A stretch of 64,000 nucleotides of DNA from an uncultured bacterium (GCA_947177425.1 CAMWUN010000009.1:14254-78253), one strand, 5' to 3'. Positions 2,916-33,152 are shown, numbered from the stretch's first letter. The notes: a model not told the origin generated them from the sequence alone. Program-made: numbers and translations.

Positions 2916-4943
2916 ATGAAAATGGAGGAAACTATGCCGGTTATCAATTTATTAAGCCAGAGTACCATAGATAAGATTGCTGCCGGGGAAGTGGTGGAGC
3001 GTCCTTTAAGCGTGGTAAAGGAACTGACGGAAAATGCCATAGACGCCGGGGCTGCGGCCATCACTGTGGAAATTAAAGAGGGCGGCATTTCTTTTATCCG
3101 GGTTACGGATAATGGATGGGGCATTGAAAAGGAGCAGGTGAAAAAGGCGTTTTTAAGACATGCCACCAGCAAAATCGCTTCCATTGACGATTTAAATAAT
3201 GTGAAAAGCTTAGGCTTTAGGGGGGAGGCTTTATCCAGTATTGCTGCTGTCTCCCAGATGGAGGTCATTACCAAGACGGAGAATGACCTGACAGGCGTGC
3301 GTTACTGTATTGCCGGCGGTGTGGAGGAGGCTTTCGAAGAAATCGGCGCGCCGGGGGGAACCACTTTTCTGGTGCATAATTTATTTTTTAATACCCCCGT
3401 GCGGAAGAAATTTTTGAAACAGCCCCAGACAGAGGGCAGTTATGTATCAGATATGATGGAGCATCTTGCCTTGTCCCATCCCCATATATCCATTAAGTTC
3501 ATCCAGAACGGCCAGATAAAGTTCCACACTTCCGGCAACGGGAACTTAAAGGAGGTTATCTACCGCATCTACGGAAAGGATATCACAGAAGCGCTTTTAC
3601 CTTTTTCATGGGAGGGAGAACTCTTTTCCGTCAGGGGCTTTTTAGGAAAGCCGGAAATCAACCGCGCCAACAGGAACTTTGAAACCTATTTTGTCAATGG
3701 GCGCTATGTGAAGAATGATATTATCACAAAGGCTATGGAGGAAGGATACCGGGATTATCTGATGCAGCATAAATTCCCCTTTTTTGTACTGCATTTTACT
3801 ATGGAGCCGGATACGCTGGATGTGAATGTACATCCGGCTAAAATGGAAATCCGTCTGATACGGGGAAACGAGTTTTATGACCAGCTTTCAGGGGCAGTCC
3901 GGGACCAGCTTCATAAGAGGGAACTGATTCCCGGTGTGAAACTTGAGGAGCCCGGAAAACGGCAGGAATCCCTTAAGGAAAAGCAGTTACTTCTTAAGAA
4001 AACGCCTGAACCTTTTGAGGTAAAACGTTCGGCAATGCTTAAGGAGCAGGAGGCCCTGTATCATACAGACGGAAATAATCCGGCAAAGTCAACAGAATGC
4101 CGGGAACCTGTCAGCCAGGGAGAAGCCCCAGTCCATGACGGGGTGAAAACTGTCGCTGCAGCCAAGGAAGGGAAAAAGGCCGGAGCGGACGATTTCCTGC
4201 AGAAAATAACCGCTAACAAGATAATTGGGACAGAAAATAACGGCAAATTTAATATAGATGAAGGAATTCATGCAAATGTCATCAAGGCAAAAGAACATAT
4301 TCTTGTGGAGCGGCCTGCCCAGCTAAATTTGTTTGAGGAGAAGTTTTTAACCAGAGAAGCCAAAGATGAATATCAGATTATGGGGCAGATTTTTGACACC
4401 TACTGGCTGGTGGCCTTTAAGGACAAGCTTTTTATCATAGACCAGCATGCAGCCCATGAGAAAGTAAAATATGAACGCCTTGTGAAAGAACTGAAAGGCA
4501 GAAGCGTTGCTTCCCAAATGCTCAATCCCCCCATTATCGTTACCCTGACGGGAAAGGAAGAGGAGCTTCTGAAAGAGTACCTTGACTTCTTTTTGCATAT
4601 GGGCTTTGAAATAGAGGAATTTGGGAGCGGTTCCGTGGCTTGCCGGAGCATGCCGGCGGATTTGTATGGATGTAACGAAAAGGAACTGTTCCTTGATATT
4701 TTGGATGAACTCTCTGAAAACCCTTTAAGAGGCACCCAGCCGGAAGTGATTTTACAAAAGCTTGCTTCCATGGCATGTAAATCGGCGGTAAAAGGAAATA
4801 ATAAACTGGACGAACGGGAAATGAAGGAATTAATCGATGAACTGCTCACCCTTGAGAATCCTTATCATTGTCCTCATGGGCGTCCCACCATTATATCTAT
4901 GAGCAAATATGAGATTGAGAAGAAATTTAAACGTATTATTTAA
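2916..4943 (+). CDS. mutL: DNA mismatch repair endonuclease MutL
   Basis: KIAAGEVVERP and GFRGEAL (GHKL ATPase); endonuclease motifs DQHAAHE, ACK and CPHGRP. Confidence 0.98.
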   Translation: MKMEETMPVINLLSQSTIDKIAAGEVVERPLSVVKELTENAIDAGAAAITVEIKEGGISFIRVTDNGWGIEKEQVKKAFLRHATSKIASIDDLNNVKSLGFRGEALSSIAAVSQMEVITKTENDLTGVRYCIAGGVEEAFEEIGAPGGTTFLVHNLFFNTPVRKKFLKQPQTEGSYVSDMMEHLALSHPHISIKFIQNGQIKFHTSGNGNLKEVIYRIYGKDITEALLPFSWEGELFSVRGFLGKPEINRANRNFETYFVNGRYVKNDIITKAMEEGYRDYLMQHKFPFFVLHFTMEPDTLDVNVHPAKMEIRLIRGNEFYDQLSGAVRDQLHKRELIPGVKLEEPGKRQESLKEKQLLLKKTPEPFEVKRSAMLKEQEALYHTDGNNPAKSTECREPVSQGEAPVHDGVKTVAAAKEGKKAGADDFLQKITANKIIGTENNGKFNIDEGIHANVIKAKEHILVERPAQLNLFEEKFLTREAKDEYQIMGQIFDTYWLVAFKDKLFIIDQHAAHEKVKYERLVKELKGRSVASQMLNPPIIVTLTGKEEELLKEYLDFFLHMGFEIEEFGSGSVACRSMPADLYGCNEKELFLDILDELSENPLRGTQPEVILQKLASMACKSAVKGNNKLDEREMKELIDELLTLENPYHCPHGRPTIISMSKYEIEKKFKRII

Positions 4944-8089: not shown

Positions 8090-9100
8090 TTGTCTATTAA
8101 CGCATTTGGCATTGACCTTGGAACCAACAATATTAAAATCTACAACCGTGCAGACGATGCAATTCTGGTTGAAAAAAATATGATTGCCATTGAAAATAAG
8201 GATACCTTATTTGCTTACGGCGATTCTGCTTTTGAAATGTATGAGAAGGCGCCGGGAAATATTCATATTTCCTATCCTCTTTCCAACGGAGTCATTGCAG
8301 ATATCAAAAATATGGAACTGCTGGTGAAATATTTTATCAGCGACATGACCAGAAGCAACATAAAGCCCGGGGATTACTATATTGCCGTGCCTACGGACGT
8401 TACCGGCGTGGAAAAGAGGGCTTTTTATGATTTGGTGAAGAACGCAGGCGTAAAGGCCAGAAGGGTCATGGTAGTGGAAAAGGCGGTTGCGGACGGACTG
8501 GGCCTGGACATTGACGTGAAGAACTCCCAGGGTGTCCTGATTGTCAACGTGGGATTCCATACCACGGAAATTTCCATCCTTTCCTTGGGGGGCATTGTAT
8601 TAAGCCGTCTGATTAAAACCGGCGGACAGAAATTTGATGACGCCATCCGGGCGGCAGTGCGGAAGGAATTCAGCCTGATTATCGGCGGAAAGACTGCGGA
8701 AAATGTGAAAATGGCCTTAAGCGACCTTGAAAAGGAAGGAAAGGGCGCAGTCGTTTATGGAAGGGATATTGTCACCGGGCTTCCCGTGGAAAGGGAACTT
8801 CCCACCCAGCTTATTGACGAGTCCTTAACAGAGCACTTCCATACCATCATCGACAATGTGAAAGTTATTCTGGAGAGGACGCCGCCGGAACTGGCGGCGG
8901 ACATTTACCGCCACGGTATCTATTTGACCGGAGGGGCTTCCCAGGTGAACCATCTGGCCCAGTTGATCCAGAAAGGAACGGGGCTTAAAGTCAATGTATC
9001 CGAAAATCCCGTTACCAGTGTAGCGTTAGGGCTTTCCAAGATTATTAAAGACGATAACTATAAGTCGGTTGCCTATGCAATTGAAGGAATGAGCACATGA
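8090..9100 (+). CDS. mreB: Rod shape-determining actin-like protein MreB (TTG start)
   Basis: GIDLGTNN, GGQKFD and IYLTGGAS actin-fold motifs; first gene of mreBCD. Confidence 0.92.
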   Translation: MSINAFGIDLGTNNIKIYNRADDAILVEKNMIAIENKDTLFAYGDSAFEMYEKAPGNIHISYPLSNGVIADIKNMELLVKYFISDMTRSNIKPGDYYIAVPTDVTGVEKRAFYDLVKNAGVKARRVMVVEKAVADGLGLDIDVKNSQGVLIVNVGFHTTEISILSLGGIVLSRLIKTGGQKFDDAIRAAVRKEFSLIIGGKTAENVKMALSDLEKEGKGAVVYGRDIVTGLPVERELPTQLIDESLTEHFHTIIDNVKVILERTPPELAADIYRHGIYLTGGASQVNHLAQLIQKGTGLKVNVSENPVTSVALGLSKIIKDDNYKSVAYAIEGMST

Positions 9101-9972
9101 GTCCAATCGTAAAGAAAAAAGGAGAGAAGTTTACATTACCCGGTAAATATCTCCTTTTTATTTTAACATTACTATGTACGGGTTTAATCGTAATAACTTT
9201 TAATACCAATTTTTTAAGCGAGCCTGTCAGCGCCGTGGGAGGTTCCCTGATAGCCCCTTTGCAGGAAGGCGTAAGCAAGGCGGGAAGCTGGATCGCCAAC
9301 CGTTCCGAGGAACTGGTGCAGATCCGTTCCCTGCTTGAGGAAAATGCGGAACTGAAGGCCCAGATCGACGAACTGACTATGGAAAATATCAGGCTCCAGC
9401 AGGGCCGGTATGAACTGACAAACTTAAGGGAACTTTACGACCTTGACGCCCAGTACGACGAGTATGAAAAGCTGGGGGCGCGGATTATCGCCAAAGACTC
9501 CGGCAACTGGTTTCATTCTTTTGTCATCAACAAAGGGTCCAACGACGGGCTGCAGATCGATATGAACGTTATGGCAGGCAGCGGCCTTGTGGGACGCATT
9601 GTGGATGTAGGGCCTAACTGGTCCAAAGTCATGTCCATCATTGACGACAATGCCAAGACCAGCGGCATGGTACTTTCCACCTCAGATAACTTAATCGTAT
9701 GCGGGGATCTGGAACTTTATGCAGACGGCCTTATCAGCTTTGAAAAGCTGATTGACAGTGCGGACAGAGTGGTGGAGGGGGATAAGATTGTGACCTCCCA
9801 CATCAGCGACAAATATCTGCCGGGGATTTTAATCGGCTATATTTTCAGCATCAATGTGGATTCTAATAATCTGACGAAATCCGGCCTGATTACGCCGGCG
9901 GTGGATTTTGAACATCTGGAGGAAGTGTTGGTGGTGACACAGCTAAAACAGACGGCAGGTGAAAGTGATTGA
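9097..9972 (+). CDS. mreC: Rod shape-determining protein MreC
   Basis: N-terminal TM helix, coiled coil, then INKGSNDG...GLVGRI and PAVDFEHLEEV. Confidence 0.94.
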   Translation: MSPIVKKKGEKFTLPGKYLLFILTLLCTGLIVITFNTNFLSEPVSAVGGSLIAPLQEGVSKAGSWIANRSEELVQIRSLLEENAELKAQIDELTMENIRLQQGRYELTNLRELYDLDAQYDEYEKLGARIIAKDSGNWFHSFVINKGSNDGLQIDMNVMAGSGLVGRIVDVGPNWSKVMSIIDDNAKTSGMVLSTSDNLIVCGDLELYADGLISFEKLIDSADRVVEGDKIVTSHISDKYLPGILIGYIFSINVDSNNLTKSGLITPAVDFEHLEEVLVVTQLKQTAGESD

Positions 9973-23960: not shown

Positions 23961-24006
23961 AATTTTCAGACAATAGATTGAATTTTTCTCTTATTTTTTG
24001 TATAAT
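23961..24006 (+). promoter_or_regulatory. Sigma-A promoter with adjacent CodY-box-like site
   Basis: TTGAAT(23978)-N17-TATAAT(24001) with extended TG. AATTTTCAGACAATA at 23961-23975 has 2 mismatches to AATTTTCWGAAAATT. Confidence 0.55.
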
Positions 24007-24037
24007 AATTATATCAGAATATAAGGGAGGTATTTTA

Positions 24038-24664
24038 ATGAATACAGTAATTACTATTGGCCGTCAATTTGGTTCTGCTGGGCGTGAAATCGGCGAGAAG
24101 GTAGCAGAATACTTTGGAATTAAATGTTATGATAAAGAGCTTTTAAGCAGAGCGGCAAAGGAGAGCGGCTTCTGTGAGGAAATGCTTGAAAACCATGATG
24201 AAAGACCTACCAATTCGTTTCTCTACAATCTGGTTATGGATACCTATTCCTTTGGTTACAATGCATCCCACTTTGTAGATATGCCTATCAGCCATAAAGT
24301 TTTTCTGGCACAGTTTGATACAATAAAAAAGATTGCCAAAGAAGGCCCCTGTGTTATCGTTGGCCGCTGTGCAGATTATGCACTCAGCGATATGAAAAAT
24401 TGTGTACACATTTTTATATACGGCAATGAAGAAACCAAGACAAAACGTATTATGAAAAAATACGATTTAGATGCCGCAAAGGCTAAAGACATGTGTATCA
24501 AAAAAGATAAACAGCGTCAAAGCTATTATAATTATTATTCCTCTAAAAAGTGGGGACGCGCTGACAGCTACGATTTATGTATTAATAGCAGTGTCCTTGG
24601 GCCTGACGGAACCGTGAAACTTTTAACACAATACATTGAGGATTTTGAGGCAAAAAATAAATAG
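24038..24664 (+). CDS. Cytidylate kinase-like family protein (paralog 1)
   Basis: VITIGRQFGSAG, CVIVGRCADY and YDLCINSS motifs; GGGAGG RBS before ATG 24038. Confidence 0.88.
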   Translation: MNTVITIGRQFGSAGREIGEKVAEYFGIKCYDKELLSRAAKESGFCEEMLENHDERPTNSFLYNLVMDTYSFGYNASHFVDMPISHKVFLAQFDTIKKIAKEGPCVIVGRCADYALSDMKNCVHIFIYGNEETKTKRIMKKYDLDAAKAKDMCIKKDKQRQSYYNYYSSKKWGRADSYDLCINSSVLGPDGTVKLLTQYIEDFEAKNK

Positions 24665-24757
24665 AGGTCTCGATCCAACTATTCGCAAAACACAAGTTTA
24701 ACGAATAGTTGAATGATGATTTGAGTATTTCCACGCTATGCATGATAGCTAGCCTAA

Positions 24758-24788
24758 AAAAATAAGCCCTGTATTTGGGCTTATTTTT
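24758..24788. terminator. Bidirectional terminator between convergent genes
   Basis: AAAAATAAGCCC-TGTATTT-GGGCTTATTTTT. Confidence 0.75.
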
Positions 24789-25872
24789 AATCCAGTATTT
24801 CTACAATTGATATATCTTTACGCGCCGATAAATCAATAAAACTGTTTCCCACCTGAATCAGAGGCCGGGTCAGGTTGAACTTGTTAATTAGCACTATATG
24901 GCCTGTTAATCCATTACTCAAACGGACGGTATGTCTGATAAAATTATTTGTGATACGTGCGATAAATGTCATGAGCATATTGGGATCATATTTCTGATAT
25001 CCTGCATCCTCCAGGCGTTTGAGGAGCCAGAATGATGATTTAGGCTTTATTCCCTCTTCTTTCATAGTCATGGTATCATATGTATCCGCTATGGAAATAA
25101 TCCTGGAAATAGGATTGATATTTTTCAACGTAACTTTCAACGGAAAACCGCTTCCATCCCGGCACTCGTGATGGGTCAGGACAGTCTGTTTTACTTTCAA
25201 ATCTAAATTTTTTTCTTTTAGCAGGTTATAGCCAAGTACAGTATGTTTACTGTATTTATCTCCATTTAATTCCGCATGAAAAGTAAACCCGCTGGGAAGT
25301 TCACCGGTATTTGTTAACTTTAACAGGCCGATATCATGTAAAAGTCCTGCCACTCCTACTAGTTCAATATCTTCTTCTTTAAATCCCATCCACTTTGCCA
25401 GTACTTGTCCCCAGAGAGCAACATTAATGGAATGCACATACAGCCCTTCTGCATTATTTTTCATAGCAAAAAGCATATTACACAAATTAACCTCATTTTT
25501 TGATTTGTCTAAAATTCCATTTAATGCGTCAAGAAGAACGGATATGTCCACATCTTTATCTTTTATAGCAACATCCTTTAAAGTATCAGACAATACAGTT
25601 TCTGCGACCTGAAAGCTTTCCTTGAATTCTTCGAGCTGCTTCTCCTCAATTTGAGGCTCTGATTCAGGAGAAGGAATGTCAGCAGGAACGGAAGAAGTTG
25701 CCTGATAATCAACCATGACATATTCAATAAAGTGTTTTGTCAAAATCGCTACGACTTCTTTTGTTACAGGAGTATCTATAGGGACAAGAACTGCACCAGT
25801 TCTGGCATAAACATCATTCTTTATTACCATGCCCTTACGCAGGCGGTCTGTACGTACTCTAAAATATGCCAT
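24787..25872 (-). CDS. HD-GYP domain protein (putative c-di-GMP phosphodiesterase)
   Basis: HSINVA, GLLHDIG, HHECRDGSGFP and IADTYD motifs. Confidence 0.85.
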   Translation of the reverse strand: MAYFRVRTDRLRKGMVIKNDVYARTGAVLVPIDTPVTKEVVAILTKHFIEYVMVDYQATSSVPADIPSPESEPQIEEKQLEEFKESFQVAETVLSDTLKDVAIKDKDVDISVLLDALNGILDKSKNEVNLCNMLFAMKNNAEGLYVHSINVALWGQVLAKWMGFKEEDIELVGVAGLLHDIGLLKLTNTGELPSGFTFHAELNGDKYSKHTVLGYNLLKEKNLDLKVKQTVLTHHECRDGSGFPLKVTLKNINPISRIISIADTYDTMTMKEEGIKPKSSFWLLKRLEDAGYQKYDPNMLMTFIARITNNFIRHTVRLSNGLTGHIVLINKFNLTRPLIQVGNSFIDLSARKDISIVEILD

Positions 25873-26005
25873 ATCTGTTACTTTCTCCTAAAAAATTAAT
25901 ACAAGCATATTAATTATAATATATAAACGTAATTTGGAAAAGTCTTTTTTAGAAAAATTTGTAAATCTAAAATGGAATAATAATAAAACTTAACCACCAA
26001 TATTT

Positions 26006-26032
26006 GGTTTACATAAATTTATTATGTAAACC
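26006..26032. other. dif-like palindromic site (candidate chromosome dimer resolution site)
   Basis: GGTTTACATAA-ATTTA-TTATGTAAACC. The right arm matches 10/11 of the B. subtilis dif right arm TTATGTAAACT, and the site lies in the strand-switch zone. The spacer is 5 bp rather than the canonical 6. Confidence 0.5.
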
Positions 26033-26338
26033 TTTGCGTTTCTGCCTTGAGGTATATTTTGAACTGTGCAATGGGGATGGGGTTGCCGCACTGGCAGCCT
26101 CCCTAAAAAATTCATCTTTATCAACATAGTCCACTGTGCTATTATATTTTGTAGTGTATCTGGTATATTTTTCAGAAGTTTGAGGAGGCTTTGATTCTGC
26201 CATCCTGCTTTTTAAATACACATTTCTAAAACTGTCTACAGTATTTGTCCTCTTCCTTTTTTGCTTTTTATATTTCAAAAAAGTATAGCCATTAATAATA
26301 ATTACAACTACAACAATAAATACGATTAAAGTTTTCAT
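26009..26338 (-). CDS. Hypothetical small membrane-anchored protein
   Basis: 109 aa with an N-terminal hydrophobic helix followed by a basic stretch; AAGGA RBS. Confidence 0.6.
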   Translation of the reverse strand: MKTLIVFIVVVVIIINGYTFLKYKKQKRKRTNTVDSFRNVYLKSRMAESKPPQTSEKYTRYTTKYNSTVDYVDKDEFFREAASAATPSPLHSSKYTSRQKRKGLHNKFM

Positions 26339-26376
26339 TATATATCCTTCCTTAAAAACGGAATTACCTTATGAAT

Positions 26377-26413
26377 AACAAACGCTGTCACACTTCACGA
26401 GTCAGCTTATTAT
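26377..26413. repeat. Single copy of the ~37-bp intergenic repeat
   Basis: AACAAACGCTGTCACACTTCACGAGTCAGCTTATTAT. Confidence 0.8.
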
Positions 26414-26437
26414 AATCAATTTGCTTTGTTTGCAAAA

Positions 26438-26884
26438 CTACAACTCATCTGAATCCAGAATGACCGTAAAAGGCCCATTGTTAATAAGGGATACCTCCAT
26501 TTGCGCACCAAAAACACCATGGGCAACATGTGGAATTTCATCAGAACATTTTTTTATAATATATTCATATATTTTTTCTGCAAGTTCCGGGTTTCCGGCA
26601 TTTATGAAGGAAGGCCTGTTTCCTTTCCGGCAGTCTGCATATAAGGTAAATTGAGAAATAATTAACAGTTCCCCGTCTATGTTTTTGAGACTTAAGTTTG
26701 TCTTTCCATTCTCATCTGGAAAAATTCTTAAATTAATTAACTTGCGAATCATTTTATCAGCAATTTCGTATGTATCTATATTGCTGATGCCTGTCAGTAC
26801 CACAAACCCATTTTTAATTTCGCCAACGGTTTTCCCTTCTACACAAACTCCGGCCTCATCTACTCTCTGAATAACAAATCTCAT
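26438..26884 (-). CDS. dtd: D-aminoacyl-tRNA deacylase
   Basis: MRFVIQRV, SQFTL, GNRPSF and NNGPFT motifs. Confidence 0.96.
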   Translation of the reverse strand: MRFVIQRVDEAGVCVEGKTVGEIKNGFVVLTGISNIDTYEIADKMIRKLINLRIFPDENGKTNLSLKNIDGELLIISQFTLYADCRKGNRPSFINAGNPELAEKIYEYIIKKCSDEIPHVAHGVFGAQMEVSLINNGPFTVILDSDEL

Positions 26885-26889
26885 AGCAT

Positions 26890-28218
26890 TTACTCCTGTT
26901 TTTTTTCTGATGAGGTGTCCTGCTCATCCTTCTTTGTTTTCTTTTTTCCAAGTTTAAAAAATGCAGTATTTTTATTTTCATCTATGGGGATGAAAACATT
27001 ATCCTGTATGTAATCCACATCCAGATACTTGCTGGTTTCCAGTGGAAGTCCTCTTTTGACAAGAAGTTTATTCGTCACACGCCGTATCATTGCGTAGATG
27101 ACTGCAAAAAAAGGGACGCCAATAATCATTCCAGGAATTCCCATAATGCCTCCAAATATGGTAATGGAAAAAATAACCCAGAAACCCGATAAACCAGTTG
27201 ACTGTCCAAGAATCTTAGGGCCAATTAAGTTGCCATCAACCTGCTGCAATATCAAAATGAAAATAATAAAGTAAATACATTTAATTGGGTTAACCATAAG
27301 AATCAGTATTGCGCTTGGGATGGCGCCAAGATACGGACCGAAAAAGGGAATTACATTAGTTATCCCTACAATTACGCTTATGAGCAGCGCATAAGGCATT
27401 TTCATAATACTGGTTCCGGCAAAACAGATAATCCCAATAATAATTGAATCGACAATTTTACCGCTGATAAAGCCTATAAATGTGTTGCTGATAAAACGGA
27501 TATCTTTGATAAACTGGTTCGCTGTACTGGTTTTAAAGACAGCGAATACAATTTTTTTGGCCTGCCCTGCAAATGTTTCCTTACTGTAAAGAACATAAAT
27601 CGAAATGATGATTCCAATAATAAAATTCCATAAAAGCTTGAGAACGCTGATCATGCTCAATGATACCTGTTTTACCAGCGTTTCCATTTGAGGAACAATA
27701 CTGTTGTTTAAATAGCTGGTAAATTCCCCTGAGTATTTATCAAATAGATTAAAAACCATCTTCTCAATATCAGGATTGTCATCCAGGAATTTAGCCGACC
27801 AGTTCATAAGGTTCTGCACATAATAAGGAAACTGATAGGAAATGCTCCTGACACTCTTGGTAATATTAGGAATCAGTATCGAGAAAAATCCATAAATCAG
27901 ACAGCCTACAATATAAATAGTGAGAAGGATAGAAATAATCCGCATACATTTTTTCTGTTTAACCGAAACCGGCTTTCCTCCATTAGCGAAAAAAAACGGC
28001 ATCAAAAAGCGGCTCTCTATTCCGTTTACCATGGGCGTCATAAGATAGGCAAAGATTATACCATACATAACCGGGCTGGCTACTCTCATGAGTGCGCTTA
28101 GCTGTGCAGAAAAACGATCTCCATGAAAAATCAGATAGTAAAAACAAATGGATGCTGCAATTACAAGAAAGGCGGTTATACCGATACGCAGATATCTTTT
28201 ATTAAACTGGATTTTCAT
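26890..28218 (-). CDS. AI-2E family (PerM/UPF0118) transporter
   Basis: Multi-TM protein with NVIPFFGPYLG and QQVDGNLIGPKILG motifs. Confidence 0.92.
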   Translation of the reverse strand: MKIQFNKRYLRIGITAFLVIAASICFYYLIFHGDRFSAQLSALMRVASPVMYGIIFAYLMTPMVNGIESRFLMPFFFANGGKPVSVKQKKCMRIISILLTIYIVGCLIYGFFSILIPNITKSVRSISYQFPYYVQNLMNWSAKFLDDNPDIEKMVFNLFDKYSGEFTSYLNNSIVPQMETLVKQVSLSMISVLKLLWNFIIGIIISIYVLYSKETFAGQAKKIVFAVFKTSTANQFIKDIRFISNTFIGFISGKIVDSIIIGIICFAGTSIMKMPYALLISVIVGITNVIPFFGPYLGAIPSAILILMVNPIKCIYFIIFILILQQVDGNLIGPKILGQSTGLSGFWVIFSITIFGGIMGIPGMIIGVPFFAVIYAMIRRVTNKLLVKRGLPLETSKYLDVDYIQDNVFIPIDENKNTAFFKLGKKKTKKDEQDTSSEKKQE

Positions 28219-28429
28219 TATTTCATTGAAAAATTTTCAGGGAACCCCAAAAACTCTTCCGGCCTCCTTTTCTGATTATAGTCTTTAATCACGGAAATTA
28301 ATTTTCAAAATCCCTGACCGGGGTTTTGGAAATTGATTTCCGCGGTCTTTATTAGTATAACATTTTTTTTTTTAGGATACTATGGTATAATTGTAAAATA
28401 TGTTTGAACTTATTTAAGCAGGAGGAATT

Positions 28430-29158
28430 ATGACATTACAGAAAGTACTTAGCTATATCCGGCGTGCAGCCGATGATTACCATATGATAGAATCAGGCGA
28501 TAAGATTGCCATCGGCATTTCCGGCGGTAAGGACAGCCTGACACTTCTCTATGGTCTTCACGGTCTTATGCGGTTTTATCCAAATCCATTTACTATTCAT
28601 GCGGTTACGGTTGATTTGGGGTTCCATAATCTTGATTTAACTGGAATACAGGAATTATGCAGTAAGCTTGAGATTCCCTATACAATTGTTAAAACAGACA
28701 TAGCCAATATAATATTTCAACAGCGTAAAGAAAGCAATCCCTGTTCTCTCTGTGCCAAAATGAGAAAAGGCGCCCTAAATGAAGCTATAAAAAAAGCAGG
28801 CTGTAACAAGGTAGCTTATGCGCACCACAAAGATGATGTAGTGGAAACCATGCTGATGTCCCTTATTTTTGAAGGAAGGTTCCACACCTTTAATCCGGTT
28901 ACATATTTAGACCGTATGGATTTAACAGTAATCAGGCCGCTTATGTATATGAATGAGTCAGATGTGATTGGATTCGTAAATAAATTCCAGATACCTGTAG
29001 TGAAAAGCCCCTGCCCTGCTGACGGCCATACGAAACGGGAATATATCAAAAACCTCTTACAGAAACTGAATCAGGAAAATCCCGGCGTAAAAGAGAGAAT
29101 GTTTACCGCCATACAAAACGGCAGGATGGAAGGATGGAGTTATTATGGAAAACAGTAA
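28430..29158 (+). CDS. ttcA: TtcA-family tRNA thiolation protein (PP-loop)
   Basis: SGGKDS, PCSLCAKMRKG, AHHKDD and IRPL motifs. Confidence 0.85.
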   Translation: MTLQKVLSYIRRAADDYHMIESGDKIAIGISGGKDSLTLLYGLHGLMRFYPNPFTIHAVTVDLGFHNLDLTGIQELCSKLEIPYTIVKTDIANIIFQQRKESNPCSLCAKMRKGALNEAIKKAGCNKVAYAHHKDDVVETMLMSLIFEGRFHTFNPVTYLDRMDLTVIRPLMYMNESDVIGFVNKFQIPVVKSPCPADGHTKREYIKNLLQKLNQENPGVKERMFTAIQNGRMEGWSYYGKQ

Positions 29159-30197
29159 AAATTATCATGATGAACAAAATAATTTAAACACCTTAAAGAT
29201 GCGGGAAGTACTTGCTGCCCTGCCCTCTTTCTGCAAGCAGTTTTTCAGGGGGATTCAGGAATACACCTCATCAAGGACAAGGCTTGCCTATGCCTATGAC
29301 CTGCGGGTGTTCTTTGAGTTCCTCCATGCAAATAACAGTGTCTGTGCTAAAATGGAAATTGTGGAGTTCCCATTGTCCATTCTGGACCAGATTACCAGAG
29401 AGGATATTGAGGAATATATGGACTATATTACTTATTATATAAAGGACGGCAGGGAATATGCCAATAACGAGAGAGGTAAAAAGAGAAAACTCTCTGCGCT
29501 GAAAAGCTTTTATAATTACTATTTCTGTGCAGAACTTATTAAAACCAATCCGGCAGCACTGGTGCCGCTCCCCAAACAGCATGAAAAGGAAATTATCCGG
29601 CTGGATGCAGACGAAGTGGCAATTCTGCTGGATCAGGTTGAAGAAGGGGAAAAACTTACCAAGTGCCAGCTAAAATATCATTCCAAAACCAAAATCCGCG
29701 ATATAGCGCTTCTCACTCTTCTACTGGGGACAGGCATACGTGTATCAGAATGTGTAGGACTAGATATCAGCGATGTGGATTTTAAAAACAACGGAATAAA
29801 AATAAGAAGAAAAGGCGGTTATGAAACAGTGGTATATTTTGGAGAGGAGGTTTCAGACGCACTTCACGATTATCTGGAAAAAAGACATCACATTATTCCG
29901 CTGGAAGGTCATGAAAACGCACTTTTCCTATCCATTCAGAACCGCCGTATCACCGTACGCGCGGTGGAGAATCTTGTAAAAAAATATACAGCTAACGTAA
30001 CGGGACTTAAAAAAATTACTCCGCATAAGCTTAGAAGCACCTATGGGACAACTCTGTATCAGGAAACCGGCGATATCTATCTGGTAGCCGATGTATTAGG
30101 GCATAAAGATGTAAATACAACCAGAAAACATTATGCTGCAATCGAGGACAACCGCCGCAGGAAAGCAGCTAAAGTGGTACGGCTGCGTGAAAAGTAA
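29145..30197 (+). CDS. Chromosomal tyrosine recombinase, Xer family (long, XerS-like N-terminus)
   Basis: 350 aa with intact catalytic residues (TGIRVSE, RRKGG, HKLR, LGH, HYA). Overlaps the ttcA stop, and no mobile-element context is visible. Confidence 0.85.
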   Translation: MENSKNYHDEQNNLNTLKMREVLAALPSFCKQFFRGIQEYTSSRTRLAYAYDLRVFFEFLHANNSVCAKMEIVEFPLSILDQITREDIEEYMDYITYYIKDGREYANNERGKKRKLSALKSFYNYYFCAELIKTNPAALVPLPKQHEKEIIRLDADEVAILLDQVEEGEKLTKCQLKYHSKTKIRDIALLTLLLGTGIRVSECVGLDISDVDFKNNGIKIRRKGGYETVVYFGEEVSDALHDYLEKRHHIIPLEGHENALFLSIQNRRITVRAVENLVKKYTANVTGLKKITPHKLRSTYGTTLYQETGDIYLVADVLGHKDVNTTRKHYAAIEDNRRRKAAKVVRLREK

Positions 30198-30278: not shown

Positions 30279-30665
30279 TCATCCATTATCTGCATCCATA
30301 GCAGTCCCAGAACCATAATAAGGAAGAATAAGGTATTGCCCAGCCACAATCTTATGATCAGAGAGGGAATTCAAACGCATAACTTCCTTTATATAGTCCC
30401 TGCTGTCCTCATATTCACCACTGCCTCCATACTCACTGGCATAATCCCAGAGAGTATCTCCATTCTGCACTACGATACTCTTATAATATTTATACAAAAC
30501 CGCCTCGGAATTACTCTGTGCTTTGGCTCTGAAACTGAAAAATATCAGAGAAAAACCTATAGCCAGCAATGTAGTCATAAGATACATGCGTATATTATGG
30601 CGAAGCTGACGTCTCCTTCTAATTCGATTATTTGCAATTCTACGTTCACTTATCCGGGAATCCAT
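30279..30665 (-). CDS. LysM-domain membrane protein, YneA-like SOS cell-division inhibitor
   Basis: TM helix followed by a LysM motif (VQNGDTLWDYA...I..VMRLNSL..HKIVAGQYLILP); divergent from lexA as in the Bacillus yneA/lexA layout. Confidence 0.8.
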   Translation of the reverse strand: MDSRISERRIANNRIRRRRQLRHNIRMYLMTTLLAIGFSLIFFSFRAKAQSNSEAVLYKYYKSIVVQNGDTLWDYASEYGGSGEYEDSRDYIKEVMRLNSLSDHKIVAGQYLILPYYGSGTAMDADNG

Positions 30666-30691
30666 TCTGAACACCTCCATGATATATTATA

Positions 30692-30801
30692 CGAACAAAT
30701 GTTACGAACAATTGTTTGTATAAGTGAATTATATCGAACAAACATTCTTATGTCAATACATTTGCGGAAAAAATCGAACAAATATTTGGAATATACGTTT
30801 G
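30692..30801. promoter_or_regulatory. Cluster of LexA (Cheo) box-like operators
   Basis: Matches to CGAAC-N4-GTTCG: CGAACAAATGTTAC (30692), CGAACAATTGTTTG (30705), CGAACAAACATTCT (30735), CGAACAAATATTTG (30775), GGAATATACGTTTG (30788). Confidence 0.75.
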
Positions 30802-30904
30802 TGTTTTCCTGTTTTGTGTGATATAATATAAAAGGAACAGAATAAGCCATTATTCAGCGGATAGTGGCTTATAACATAATTAACCAGGTAAAAGGAGGAT
30901 ATTC

Positions 30905-31519
30905 ATGGGATACGGGAAAATTAGCAGTAAGCAGCAGGAAATACTAGATTATATTAAAGAAGAAATTTTAAAGCGGGGATATCCGCCTGCTGTCCGGGAA
31001 ATTTGCGAGGCCGTTCATTTAAAGTCAACCTCTTCTGTCCATTCCCATCTTGAAACACTTGAGAAAAACGGCTATATCCGCCGTGACCCTACCAAACCAA
31101 GGGCAATAGAGATATGCGACGATAATTTCCAGATGGTCCGCACAGAGATGGTCAGCCTTCCGGTAATCGGTCAGGTTGCCGCAGGACTGCCTATTCTGGC
31201 AGAGGAAAATATTGAAAGCTATTTCCCTGTCCCGGCAGAGATGGTTCCCCACGGAGAATCTTTTATCTTAAAGGTTAAGGGGGATTCTATGATAAATGCA
31301 GGGATACTAAATGGCGACCGGATTTTTGTCAATGCCTGTAATTCAGCCAGGAATGGGGATATGGTGGTGGCCCTTATTGATGATTCCGCTACAGTCAAAA
31401 CCTTCTACCGGGAAGACGGGCATGTACGCCTTCAGCCTGAAAATGATACGATGGACCCTATTATTGTAGATGACTGCCAGATTCTCGGAACAGTTTTCGG
31501 GGTATTCAGACTTTTCTGA
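30905..31519 (+). CDS. lexA: SOS transcriptional repressor LexA
   Basis: GYPPAVREI HTH, VAAG cleavage site, VKGDSM (Ser) and ATVK (Lys). Confidence 0.97.
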   Translation: MGYGKISSKQQEILDYIKEEILKRGYPPAVREICEAVHLKSTSSVHSHLETLEKNGYIRRDPTKPRAIEICDDNFQMVRTEMVSLPVIGQVAAGLPILAEENIESYFPVPAEMVPHGESFILKVKGDSMINAGILNGDRIFVNACNSARNGDMVVALIDDSATVKTFYREDGHVRLQPENDTMDPIIVDDCQILGTVFGVFRLF

Positions 31520-31570: not shown

Positions 31571-31681
31571 AACAAACGCTGTCATGCTTCGCAAGCCAGC
31601 TTATTGTAACAAACGCTGTCACCCTTTGCGAGTCAGCTTATTGTAACAAACGCTGTCACCCTTTGCAAGCCAGCTTATTGC
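31571..31681. repeat. Three tandem 37-bp repeats (no spacers)
   Basis: Units 31571-31607, 31608-31644 and 31645-31681; consensus AACAAACGCTGTCACCCTTTGCRAGYCAGCTTATTGT. Confidence 0.92.
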
Positions 31682-31771: not shown

Positions 31772-32404
31772 TTATTGTCGTGTTTTAAACCGCACATTAA
31801 TATAGGAAATAATCTCTTCAACACACCGGTCATATCCAAGTTTGGAACTGTCCAGACACAAATCATAATTTCTTGCGTCCGTCCATTCTCTTCCAGTGTA
31901 ATATTTGTAGTATTCAGCTCTGTGTTTATCTGTCTTCTGGATAAAACGTTCCAACTCTTTCGAGGGCATGCTGTGTTTCTTGGCCGCCTGTTCCATGCAG
32001 TATTCAGAGGGCGCATGAATAAACACACTGAGAACATTGTCATAGTCCTTCAATATGAAATCTGCACACCGTCCTACAATCACGCAGGCTTCTTCATTTG
32101 CAAGCTGTTTGATGATTTTCGCCTGATAGTTAAATAGATTTTGTGTGGATACAAAATCATCGCTTTCAGGCGGAATCAGTTCCCCATGGTATACACTGTG
32201 GGCGATTTTAAAGAGAATCGTATTTTTGATTTTCTCATCAGCATTGGCAAAGAGAGCTTCGTTGATTCCACTCTCCTCCGAAGCCAGCTTTAAAAGCTCT
32301 TTGTCATAAAAATGAACGCCCAGCTTTTGTGCAAGCATTTTTCCTATGGTAAGCCCGCCGCTCCCATACTGTCTTGCAATGGTAATAACAATTTTGTCCT
32401 TCAT
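31772..32404 (-). CDS. Cytidylate kinase-like family protein (paralog 2)
   Basis: VITIARQYGSGG, CVIVGRCADF and YDLCLDSS motifs; ATG at 32404; follows livF. Confidence 0.87.
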   Translation of the reverse strand: MKDKIVITIARQYGSGGLTIGKMLAQKLGVHFYDKELLKLASEESGINEALFANADEKIKNTILFKIAHSVYHGELIPPESDDFVSTQNLFNYQAKIIKQLANEEACVIVGRCADFILKDYDNVLSVFIHAPSEYCMEQAAKKHSMPSKELERFIQKTDKHRAEYYKYYTGREWTDARNYDLCLDSSKLGYDRCVEEIISYINVRFKTRQ

Positions 32405-32441
32405 GGAACATACCCCCTTTTCAGCAAAATAAATGCCGGAT

Positions 32442-33152
32442 TTATTCACCCAGATATGCTTTTTTGATTGAATCGTTGTTCAGCAGTTCCTCAGCATCTC
32501 CTTCTAAGACAATTTTACCAGTCTCAAGGACATAAGCTCGGTCTGAAATTGACAGAGCCTTCTTAGCGTTCTGCTCTACCAGAAGCACGGTGGTGCCGCT
32601 GGCGCTTACTTCTTGTATGATATTAAAAATTTCATTAACAAAAATAGGGGAAAGTCCCATGGAAGGTTCATCCATCAGAATAATCCTGGGGTGTGACATA
32701 AGCGCCCTGCCCATGGCAAGCATCTGCTGCTCCCCGCCGCTTAGTGTGCCGGCAAGCTGATTCTGCCGCTCTTCCAGCCTTGGAAAACGCTGGTATACAG
32801 TTTTCAGCGTTTCTTCAATTTCCTCCTTGTCCTTCCGCGTGTAAGCACCCATTCTTAAATTCTGCAAAACTGTAAGATTTGCAAATACACGCCTTCCCTC
32901 AGGTACATGGGCCATTCCCATGGACACAATCTTGTGTGCGGGAACCTTTGTAATATTTTTTCCATCAAATAATACAGAACCGGATTTCGCTTCTAGAAGG
33001 CCGGTCACTGTATGCAGGATTGTGGTCTTTCCGGCGCCGTTTGCACCGATAAGAGCAATAACTTCTCCTTCGTTTACTTCAAATGATACGCCTTTTATGG
33101 CTTGAATCATACCATAATATACTTCTAAATCTTTAATTTCAAGCATTGCCAT
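32442..33152 (-). CDS. livF: Branched-chain amino acid ABC transporter ATP-binding protein
   Basis: GANGAGKTT, VPEGRRVF, LSGGEQQML and DEPSMGL motifs. Confidence 0.93.
   Translation of the reverse strand: MAMLEIKDLEVYYGMIQAIKGVSFEVNEGEVIALIGANGAGKTTILHTVTGLLEAKSGSVLFDGKNITKVPAHKIVSMGMAHVPEGRRVFANLTVLQNLRMGAYTRKDKEEIEETLKTVYQRFPRLEERQNQLAGTLSGGEQQMLAMGRALMSHPRIILMDEPSMGLSPIFVNEIFNIIQEVSASGTTVLLVEQNAKKALSISDRAYVLETGKIVLEGDAEELLNNDSIKKAYLGE

Follow-up and report, generated by a model that had tools for sequence, protein, structure and literature searches.

A perfect 27-bp palindrome was analysed in a 64,000-nt stretch of DNA from an uncultured bacterium (GCA_947177425.1, CAMWUN010000009.1:14254-78253). 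The best explanation was that it is probably a variant dif, with the neighbouring XerS-like tyrosine recombinase as the best candidate enzyme. The full stretch is called the window here, and its coordinates were counted from its first letter. The comparisons pointed with good confidence to an Xer target or dif, and the recombinase of 350 amino acids (aa), which we call Family A, was considered fairly likely to act on it. It might also act alone, a more tentative proposal that came from the symmetry of the arms. In this gut Lachnospiraceae chromosome, the palindrome was very probably the dif site, in an undescribed form with identical arms and a 5-bp centre. In the literature, no account was found of this palindrome or of Xer in Lachnospiraceae. 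The main features of the window were as follows.

26006-26032, no strand: 27-bp perfect palindrome, candidate dif-type recombination site, recognised by its inverted repeat and its conservation
26006-26016: left arm, GGTTTACATAA
26017-26021: spacer, ATTTA
26022-26032: right arm, TTATGTAAACC
24700-26100, no strand: zone of the replichore junction, where GC skew and gene orientation change sign; cumulative skew maximum at ~25044
29145-30197, plus strand: 350-aa recombinase of Family A, candidate cognate enzyme

The palindrome was confirmed at 26006-26032, where the original prediction had placed it. The plus strand read GGTTTACATAA-ATTTA-TTATGTAAACC, a perfect 11-5-11 inverted repeat. The window contained no other match when up to 3 mismatches were permitted, and none appeared in 100 shuffles. 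For 80 Lachnospiraceae species, conservation was followed in loci reaching 10 kb outward from the recombinase ortholog in both directions. These loci and the window were scanned with a position-weight model in which spacers of 4-8 bp were permitted. The scores were bimodal. Strong sites of 28-38 bits were found in the loci of 25 species and in the window, and all other loci remained below 18 bits. The spacer was 5 bp in every strong site, and the same was true of all ~40 sites in the loci chosen by the gene. Related loci amounting to 1.84 Mb, which were picked by the recombinase gene and independently of the site, were also searched with the relaxed pattern [AT]TAA-Nk-TTATGTNAAN for k = 4-8. 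There were 73 strand-hits at k = 5, compared to 3 at k = 4, 4 at k = 6, none at k = 7 and 2 at k = 8. Public contigs from three independent sequencing runs spanned 25921-26295 with no inserted or missing letter. An indel error in the spacer, which had been the caveat of the original prediction, was ruled out by the invariant 5 bp in the relatives and by the indel-free contigs of the three runs. The 5-bp spacer is a genuine, invariant feature.

The consensus was RGTTNACATAA-N5-TTATGTNAACY, with ~160 related loci in total, and the strict core was present in more than 120 metagenome contigs. A set of 122 distinct sites was used for comparison. Their spacers were 89% A/T, and the spacer sequence was not conserved. 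Each locus carried one site, both in the 1.84 Mb chosen by the gene and in the metagenome contigs, with loci L025 and L196 as the exceptions. Two full sites were located 80 bp apart in L025 (7622-7728), and they differed in the spacer and in the variant at the degenerate arm position. A BirA operator, with the half-site TGTAAACC, was also considered and set aside. The BirA half-sites were oppositely oriented and 14-15 bp apart, no biotin genes were nearby, and no formal test was made.

The arm of the palindrome is known from textbooks as the XerD (RipX) side of dif. In published dif sites of Firmicutes and of several further phyla, the XerD side carries the arm TTATGTAAAC(C/T). The published dif of S. 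aureus is ACTTCCTATAATATATATTATGTAAACT, that is, ACTTCCTATAA-TATATA-TTATGTAAACT, and published dif sites end in TTATGTAAACC in Syntrophus and in TTATGTAAACT in Myxococcus. In the window, the left arm was the exact reverse complement of the right arm. The sites of L001, L008 and L023 were identical to the arm of B. subtilis and S. aureus at 11/11 positions on both sides. In addition, one degenerate arm position was identical in both arms in 98 of the 122 sites, compared to 47% expected. The identity of the arms meant that the site could be read as a dif with a second XerD arm in place of the XerC arm, minus one central bp. Symmetry even at the degenerate position fitted one DNA-binding specificity. 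When the site was compared with canonical dif, the TTATGTnAAnT-like XerD arm was present at 11/11. A distinct XerC arm was absent, and the central region was 5 bp instead of 6 wherever the spacing was left free. Since the arms were equal and the centre was 5 bp rather than 6 bp, the site did not belong to the canonical dif class.

The candidate system was then set beside the known ones. It resembled XerCD/dif of E. coli and CodV-RipX/dif of B. subtilis in its position at a replichore junction, its A/T-rich sequence, its 11-bp arms with the XerD arm on the right, its inner CATAA...TTATG symmetry, and an enzyme that also belongs to the Xer subgroup of tyrosine recombinases. However, it had two XerD arms and a 5-bp centre instead of 6, and the nearby recombinase was ~50 aa longer and scored below the XerC and XerD cut-offs. 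XerS/difSL of streptococci and lactococci is likewise a Firmicutes system with a ~350-aa recombinase and a gene linked to its presumed site. However, the difSL sequence was unrelated, and the distance between gene and site varied here between 0.1 kb and over 10 kb. The 31-bp difSL has unequal arms and is bound asymmetrically, and this asymmetry is important for synapsis and control (PMC2965235). The present site was indeed unlike difSL in both sequence and architecture, as had been proposed.

Symmetric sites have also been described. The dif sites of XerL in Legionellales have perfect dyad symmetry of 10-12-bp arms, and the recombinase gene need not adjoin the site (PMC9765430). The present system was similar in its perfectly symmetric arms and in a recombinase gene that can be apart from the site. 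In contrast, the XerL arms have no similarity to Xer-binding motifs, but XerD arms are present here; the proteobacterial XerL is another recombinase that looks unrelated, and its system was proven genetically, whereas the present one is known from sequence. XerH/difH of Helicobacter and Campylobacter and XerA/dif of archaea offered precedents for a single recombinase at nearly palindromic sites. Their arms, however, are imperfectly symmetric, and the match to XerH was weak (E = 5e-11). The central regions of the XerH and XerA sites are 6 bp. Lachnospiraceae were absent from a survey of dif in 2011, and its predictions for Clostridium were poor, some of them ~175 degrees from the skew switch (PMC3025954).

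The position of the site was examined by GC skew and gene orientation. The skew changed from ~+0.10 (1-24 kb) to ~-0.10 (32-64 kb), and the cumulative skew peaked at 24-25 kb. Among non-overlapping open reading frames (ORFs) of at least 150 aa, 19 were on the plus strand and 2 on the minus strand to the left of the site, vs 6 and 26 to its right. Both the orientation switch and the terminus-like region of the original prediction were thus recovered. Over the 64 kb, the region looked like a replichore junction, and the site was located at the skew switch, where a dif is placed. The tendency was similar in the relatives. In 13 of 26 loci, compared to ~1 expected, no more than 400 bp separated the site from the local cumulative-skew maximum; local skew is confounded with gene orientation, and the long-range view came from the 64-kb window alone. 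In L009 and L016 the site followed lexA instead of preceding dtd, and in L023 it was ~0.9 kb farther from the recombinase gene. The skew maximum moved along with it, to 1-22 bp from the site in these three loci. For the remaining half of the loci, this maximum was at the far edge of a small zone of mixed orientation. The polarity of the FtsK-orienting motifs GAGAAGGG, GGGNAGGG and GAAGAAG also flipped at the site. This flip was given no weight because the motifs are G-rich and confounded with skew.

Between the right end of the site and the start of the recombinase gene there were 3112 bp. The predicted 350-aa tyrosine recombinase at 3.1 kb was borne out by its domains, PF00589 (120 bits) and the N-terminal SAM-like PF02899 (28 bits). 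XerS was the nearest named model with 196.3 bits, followed by XerC (177), XerA (174) and XerD (157). "XerS-like" refers to no more than this nearest family. The score was 196 vs a cut-off of 267 (NF003462), which meant that Family A was not a XerS equivalog. The XerC and XerD cut-offs (TIGR02224 and TIGR02225) are 335 and 330, and Family A did not reach them. The predicted catalytic residues R199, K223, H294, R297, H320 and Y330 were invariant in 32 sequences and aligned to those of XerD. With PF00589, the SAM-like domain and the R-K-H-R-H-Y set, Family A belonged to the broad Xer subgroup of tyrosine recombinases. Its best solved relatives by sequence were XerD and XerA. The proteins were 75-96% identical across genera, a conservation that in sequence terms is housekeeping-like. 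Structure prediction was made from a shallow alignment and gave a mean pLDDT of 56; no support was drawn from it.

Linkage between the site and the gene was then evaluated. The proposed check for the palindrome near orthologous xer genes of Lachnospiraceae gave a positive result, with a site within 10 kb of the Family A gene in 25 of 80 species, where chance was estimated at ~0.5%. The ortholog of Enterocloster citroniae, whose loci were reached via a scan of viral contigs, had 67% identity, with the site 164 bp ahead of the start codon in all 8 contexts. These contexts contained no ttcA, dtd, lexA or other neighbours from the window. In the metagenome set, 120 contigs picked by the site alone, 16 carried an ortholog of at least 55% identity at a distance of 115-6052 bp. 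Sixteen orthologs in 650 kb of flank corresponded to an estimated ~100-fold the density of a single-copy gene. At least six gene orders were observed around the site. The site preceded dtd or followed lexA in some loci; in others it separated lexA or ttcA from the recombinase gene, stood just upstream of ttcA, or came 113 bp past the recombinase stop. This variation looked like repeated inversions around the terminus in which the recombinase gene was kept close. That the recombinase is encoded near its candidate site, as had been proposed, was consistent with this strong linkage across many rearranged neighbourhoods. In Enterocloster, the left arm was abutted by 2-3 tandem copies of the 14-bp unit CAGATTTCATACAA (L094 9768-9811; L082 9125-9152), which looks like a degenerate arm and varies in copy number among strains.

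Several observations weighed against a variant dif served by the neighbouring recombinase. In 55 of the 80 species, no site was found within 10 kb of the gene, which meant that linkage was not obligatory. A palindrome search and scans for ATAA-N5/6-TTAT in these loci for a substitute palindrome or a canonical dif gave only terminators and noise. The genes ttcA, dtd and lexA were likewise retained in its vicinity where a site was present, and shared ancestry close to the terminus may account for part of the linkage. To our knowledge, a 5-bp centre falls outside the 6-8 bp of characterised tyrosine recombinases. The remaining points concern the other Xer-like genes, the symmetric extension of the palindrome and the prophage junction in Enterocloster, and they are given below with the alternatives on which they bear.

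A mechanism can be outlined for the variant dif with its neighbouring recombinase. Chromosome dimers arise by homologous recombination. An Xer-family recombinase would exchange strands between sister chromosomes at the site and convert dimers to monomers at cell division. Both 11-bp arms would be of the XerD type, around an A/T-rich, unconserved centre of 5 bp. A spacer of odd length is never its own reverse complement, so it would be the sole source of polarity, given the identical arms. Four recombinase subunits would bind two sites, and the cuts would either fall at the borders of arm and spacer and be staggered by 5 bp, or be shifted by one base into each arm and staggered by 7 bp (A-N5-T). 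Activation would presumably be by FtsK/SpoIIIE, as in other Xer systems. We infer binding, recombination, the cleavage positions, FtsK dependence and lone action from the features of the site and the gene.

The alternative that survived best was that the site is a dif on which another enzyme acts. Either an XerD ortholog elsewhere would be used, or the 350-aa protein would be an XerC-like partner with converged binding sites. This was considered unlikely, although both arms are XerD-type and the gene is more than 10 kb from any site in the 55 species mentioned above. Other Xer-like genes bear on this question. Family B (~325 aa) scored 230 bits for XerC and 214 bits for XerD, under both cut-offs, and NCBI names some of its members XerC in uncultured Clostridia. 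The same 11-5-11 site was found 2-20 bp after the Family B stop in L137, L182 and L215-L218. In terms of sequence context, the site is tied to two Xer-like families, A and B. The genomes with Family B also had an XerD-like 304-aa gene beside spoIIM, at a distance of 9.5 kb from the pair of Family B gene and site. An N-terminal fragment of 186 aa from the spoIIM-side gene scored best on the XerD model, with 173 bits. A further Xer-like protein of 306 aa, Family C, was conserved in Lachnospiraceae with 74-84% identity. Both the spoIIM-side gene and Family C counted as points for a second or different enzyme. However, no XerD-like gene was found in the 64-kb window or in 78 of the 80 Lachnospiraceae loci. 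Family C lacked a site within 10 kb in 7 loci, and for this reason it served as a useful negative control for linkage. It was surrounded by variable glycosyltransferase and surface-polysaccharide genes, gave a weak MrpR_C_cat hit (L035/L039 ~3628-4560; L221-L225), and was probably a phase-variation invertase. The symmetric arms, including the degenerate position, were more consistent with a single specificity. The distance of 2-164 bp between site and gene in several lineages also resembled xerS/difSL and xerH/difH.

The symmetry of the palindrome did not end at the arms. It was extended by at least 4 bp in 50 of the 122 sites, with species-specific compensating sequence, whereas 2.1 were expected when partners were shuffled. 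The extensions ranged from 4 to 31 bp beyond the arms (for example, L002 6790, L016 2780 and L123 2329), and L123 had perfect arms of 31 bp. The window site had no extension. Seven positions outside the 10-bp core were complementary in 40-77% of sites, compared to 25% expected. This extension is not required for protein binding and is outside the reach of a dif model, which counted against the explanation preferred here. A palindrome whose core must stay perfect could have grown and been homogenised neutrally through template switching there, or an extruded hairpin or cruciform could have been selected for; both are speculative. A broader proposal could be built on it. Lachnospiraceae, and probably many Clostridia, would use a symmetric dif with scissile phosphates 5 bp apart, on which an unnamed XerS-like recombinase acts alone, and the species-specific extension would mean that the site functions, or is kept, in the form of an extruded hairpin or cruciform. 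We regard this proposal as a whole as doubtful.

That the palindrome binds some other dimeric protein, as an operator or as a non-polar replication terminator of the replication terminator protein (RTP) type, was very improbable. The match to the XerD arm would then be a coincidence or the result of shared ancestry. Perfect dyad symmetry is typical of homodimer operators, the HD-GYP gene of the window has a promoter-like site with the palindrome ~66 bp upstream of it, and the two sites of L196 have a PadR/RTP-like gene in their vicinity. However, the neighbours and the relative position of the site varied freely among lineages, and one copy per locus in 1.84 Mb was not the spread of a regulon. 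Several sites were 11/11 to the XerD arm, and the site was enriched beside two Xer-like families.

A mainly structural hairpin, either a terminator between operons or a cruciform with an incidental core, was still harder to accept. The window DNA hairpin had -9.5 kcal/mol with z = -3.8, which was stable for its composition. The site passed a loose terminator rule on the plus strand, it directly followed the stop codon in Family B, and the compensating stem extensions described above would suit a hairpin. However, no plus-strand gene ended upstream of the window site, and no T-run followed the stem on the minus strand. Terminator stems are not kept base for base across families while loops vary. 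Runs of A or T beside the stem were observed in only 31 of the 122 sites, so a terminator role accounted for few of them, and Rfam 15 gave no relevant match to the site. A secondary terminator role may exist on top of the recombination role.

The site was also found on mobile DNA. Environmental contigs resembling RepA_C plasmids (L125, L142, L195, L206 and relatives) had the same arms with conserved flanks, and their spacers were G+C-rich (CAGGG, CGATG). L195 also encoded a 203-aa tyrosine recombinase. In L196 (1909-2730), two sites flanked a single ThiF-family gene, with a Family B gene 1 kb off and the PadR/RTP-like gene nearby. The shared arms on the plasmid-like contigs and the L196 pair around one gene, which recalls dif modules, were similar to plasmid Xer sites such as cer, psi and the pdif of Acinetobacter. 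In contrast to these, no accessory sequences were identified at the present sites. By this analogy, the plasmid copies fit the borrowing of a host multimer-resolution system. In E. citroniae (L087-L094, ~8900-9300), the left flank was hypervariable and held an inovirus-like prophage (REP_ORF2-G2P, Zot-like), a Rep_trans element or other genes, with breakpoints at L094 8923, 9104 and 9251. A 149-bp direct repeat (L094 9104-9252) bounded the prophage ~560 bp away from the palindrome. Because of this distance, integration of the prophage at the site was rejected, and the prophage was not classed as an integrative mobile element exploiting Xer (IMEX). There was consequently no evidence of mobile-element integration there, unlike at dif elsewhere, which was a further point against a dif. 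Three tailed-phage contigs of IMG/VR (L083-L085) carried the strict core beside RecT, DNA polymerase/primase-helicase or terminase genes, and L085 had a 5-bp palindrome extension. They were not used as support because their number was near a rough chance estimate for an A/T-rich 18-base pattern.

These copies on RepA_C and tailed-phage contigs, the pair around ThiF and the hypervariable Enterocloster flank could suggest that the site serves the attachment or resolution of a plasmid, phage or island rather than chromosome maintenance; this was hardly credible, since in the window and its relatives the site is at the skew switch among the housekeeping genes dtd, ttcA and lexA, the Enterocloster junction is off the site, the phage hits are near chance, and plasmid copies are expected if a host Xer system is borrowed.

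The other genes around the site and the recombinase gene were as follows.

23978-24664, plus strand: cytidylate-kinase-like gene
24787-25872, minus strand: gene for an HD-GYP protein
26009-26338, minus strand: ORF for a small membrane protein of 109 aa, with its last 7 codons and stop encoded by the palindrome
26438-26884, minus strand: D-aminoacyl-tRNA deacylase (dtd)
26890-28218, minus strand: AI-2E permease
28430-29158, plus strand: TtcA-like PP-loop ATPase gene (ttcA), overlapping the recombinase start by 14 bp
30279-30680, minus strand: YneA-like LysM protein
30905-31519, plus strand: lexA
31772-32449, minus strand: second cytidylate-kinase-like gene

The 109-aa ORF had 39-70% identity in L001, L009 and L023. 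In many lineages the ttcA-like gene was conserved alongside the recombinase gene, and their 14-bp overlap made co-transcription probable. Three LexA-box-like repeats (GAAC-N4-GTTN) were located at 30693-30747, between the divergent yneA-like gene and lexA. SOS control of the recombinase was considered and rejected: the LexA-box-like sites were confined to the interval of yneA and lexA, and none was upstream of ttcA and the recombinase gene. The yneA-like/lexA block (30279-31519) was a conserved terminus-proximal context rather than a demonstrated part of the mechanism. The two paralogous cytidylate-kinase-like genes were inverted around a central zone of 7 kb and were possible substrates for terminus inversions. 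A dispersed short repeat, AACGCTGTCACNCTTYRCGA, was found at 26376-26415 and 31612-31631. The first copy was between dtd and the small ORF and overlapped a promoter-like site, and the second followed lexA. This repeat recurred across many contigs from the same metagenome runs, with a depth of up to 26-55 times.

Chromosome dimer resolution is close to universal, and the dif sites of Clostridia are poorly known. If the palindrome is a variant dif, it would provide a terminus marker for many gut Lachnospiraceae assemblies, and it would account for the failure of dif searches with 28-bp models in these genomes. It would also pose the mechanistic problem of strand exchange by a tyrosine recombinase over 5 bp, and of directionality and control by FtsK when the arms are identical. 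The palindrome extensions may record palindrome growth or selection at the replication terminus. If the reading as a symmetric dif maintained as a hairpin were true, both the strand-exchange geometry and the form of the substrate would be undescribed for any Xer system. In addition, the recombinase and its site would be a compact pair for genetic tools in gut anaerobes.

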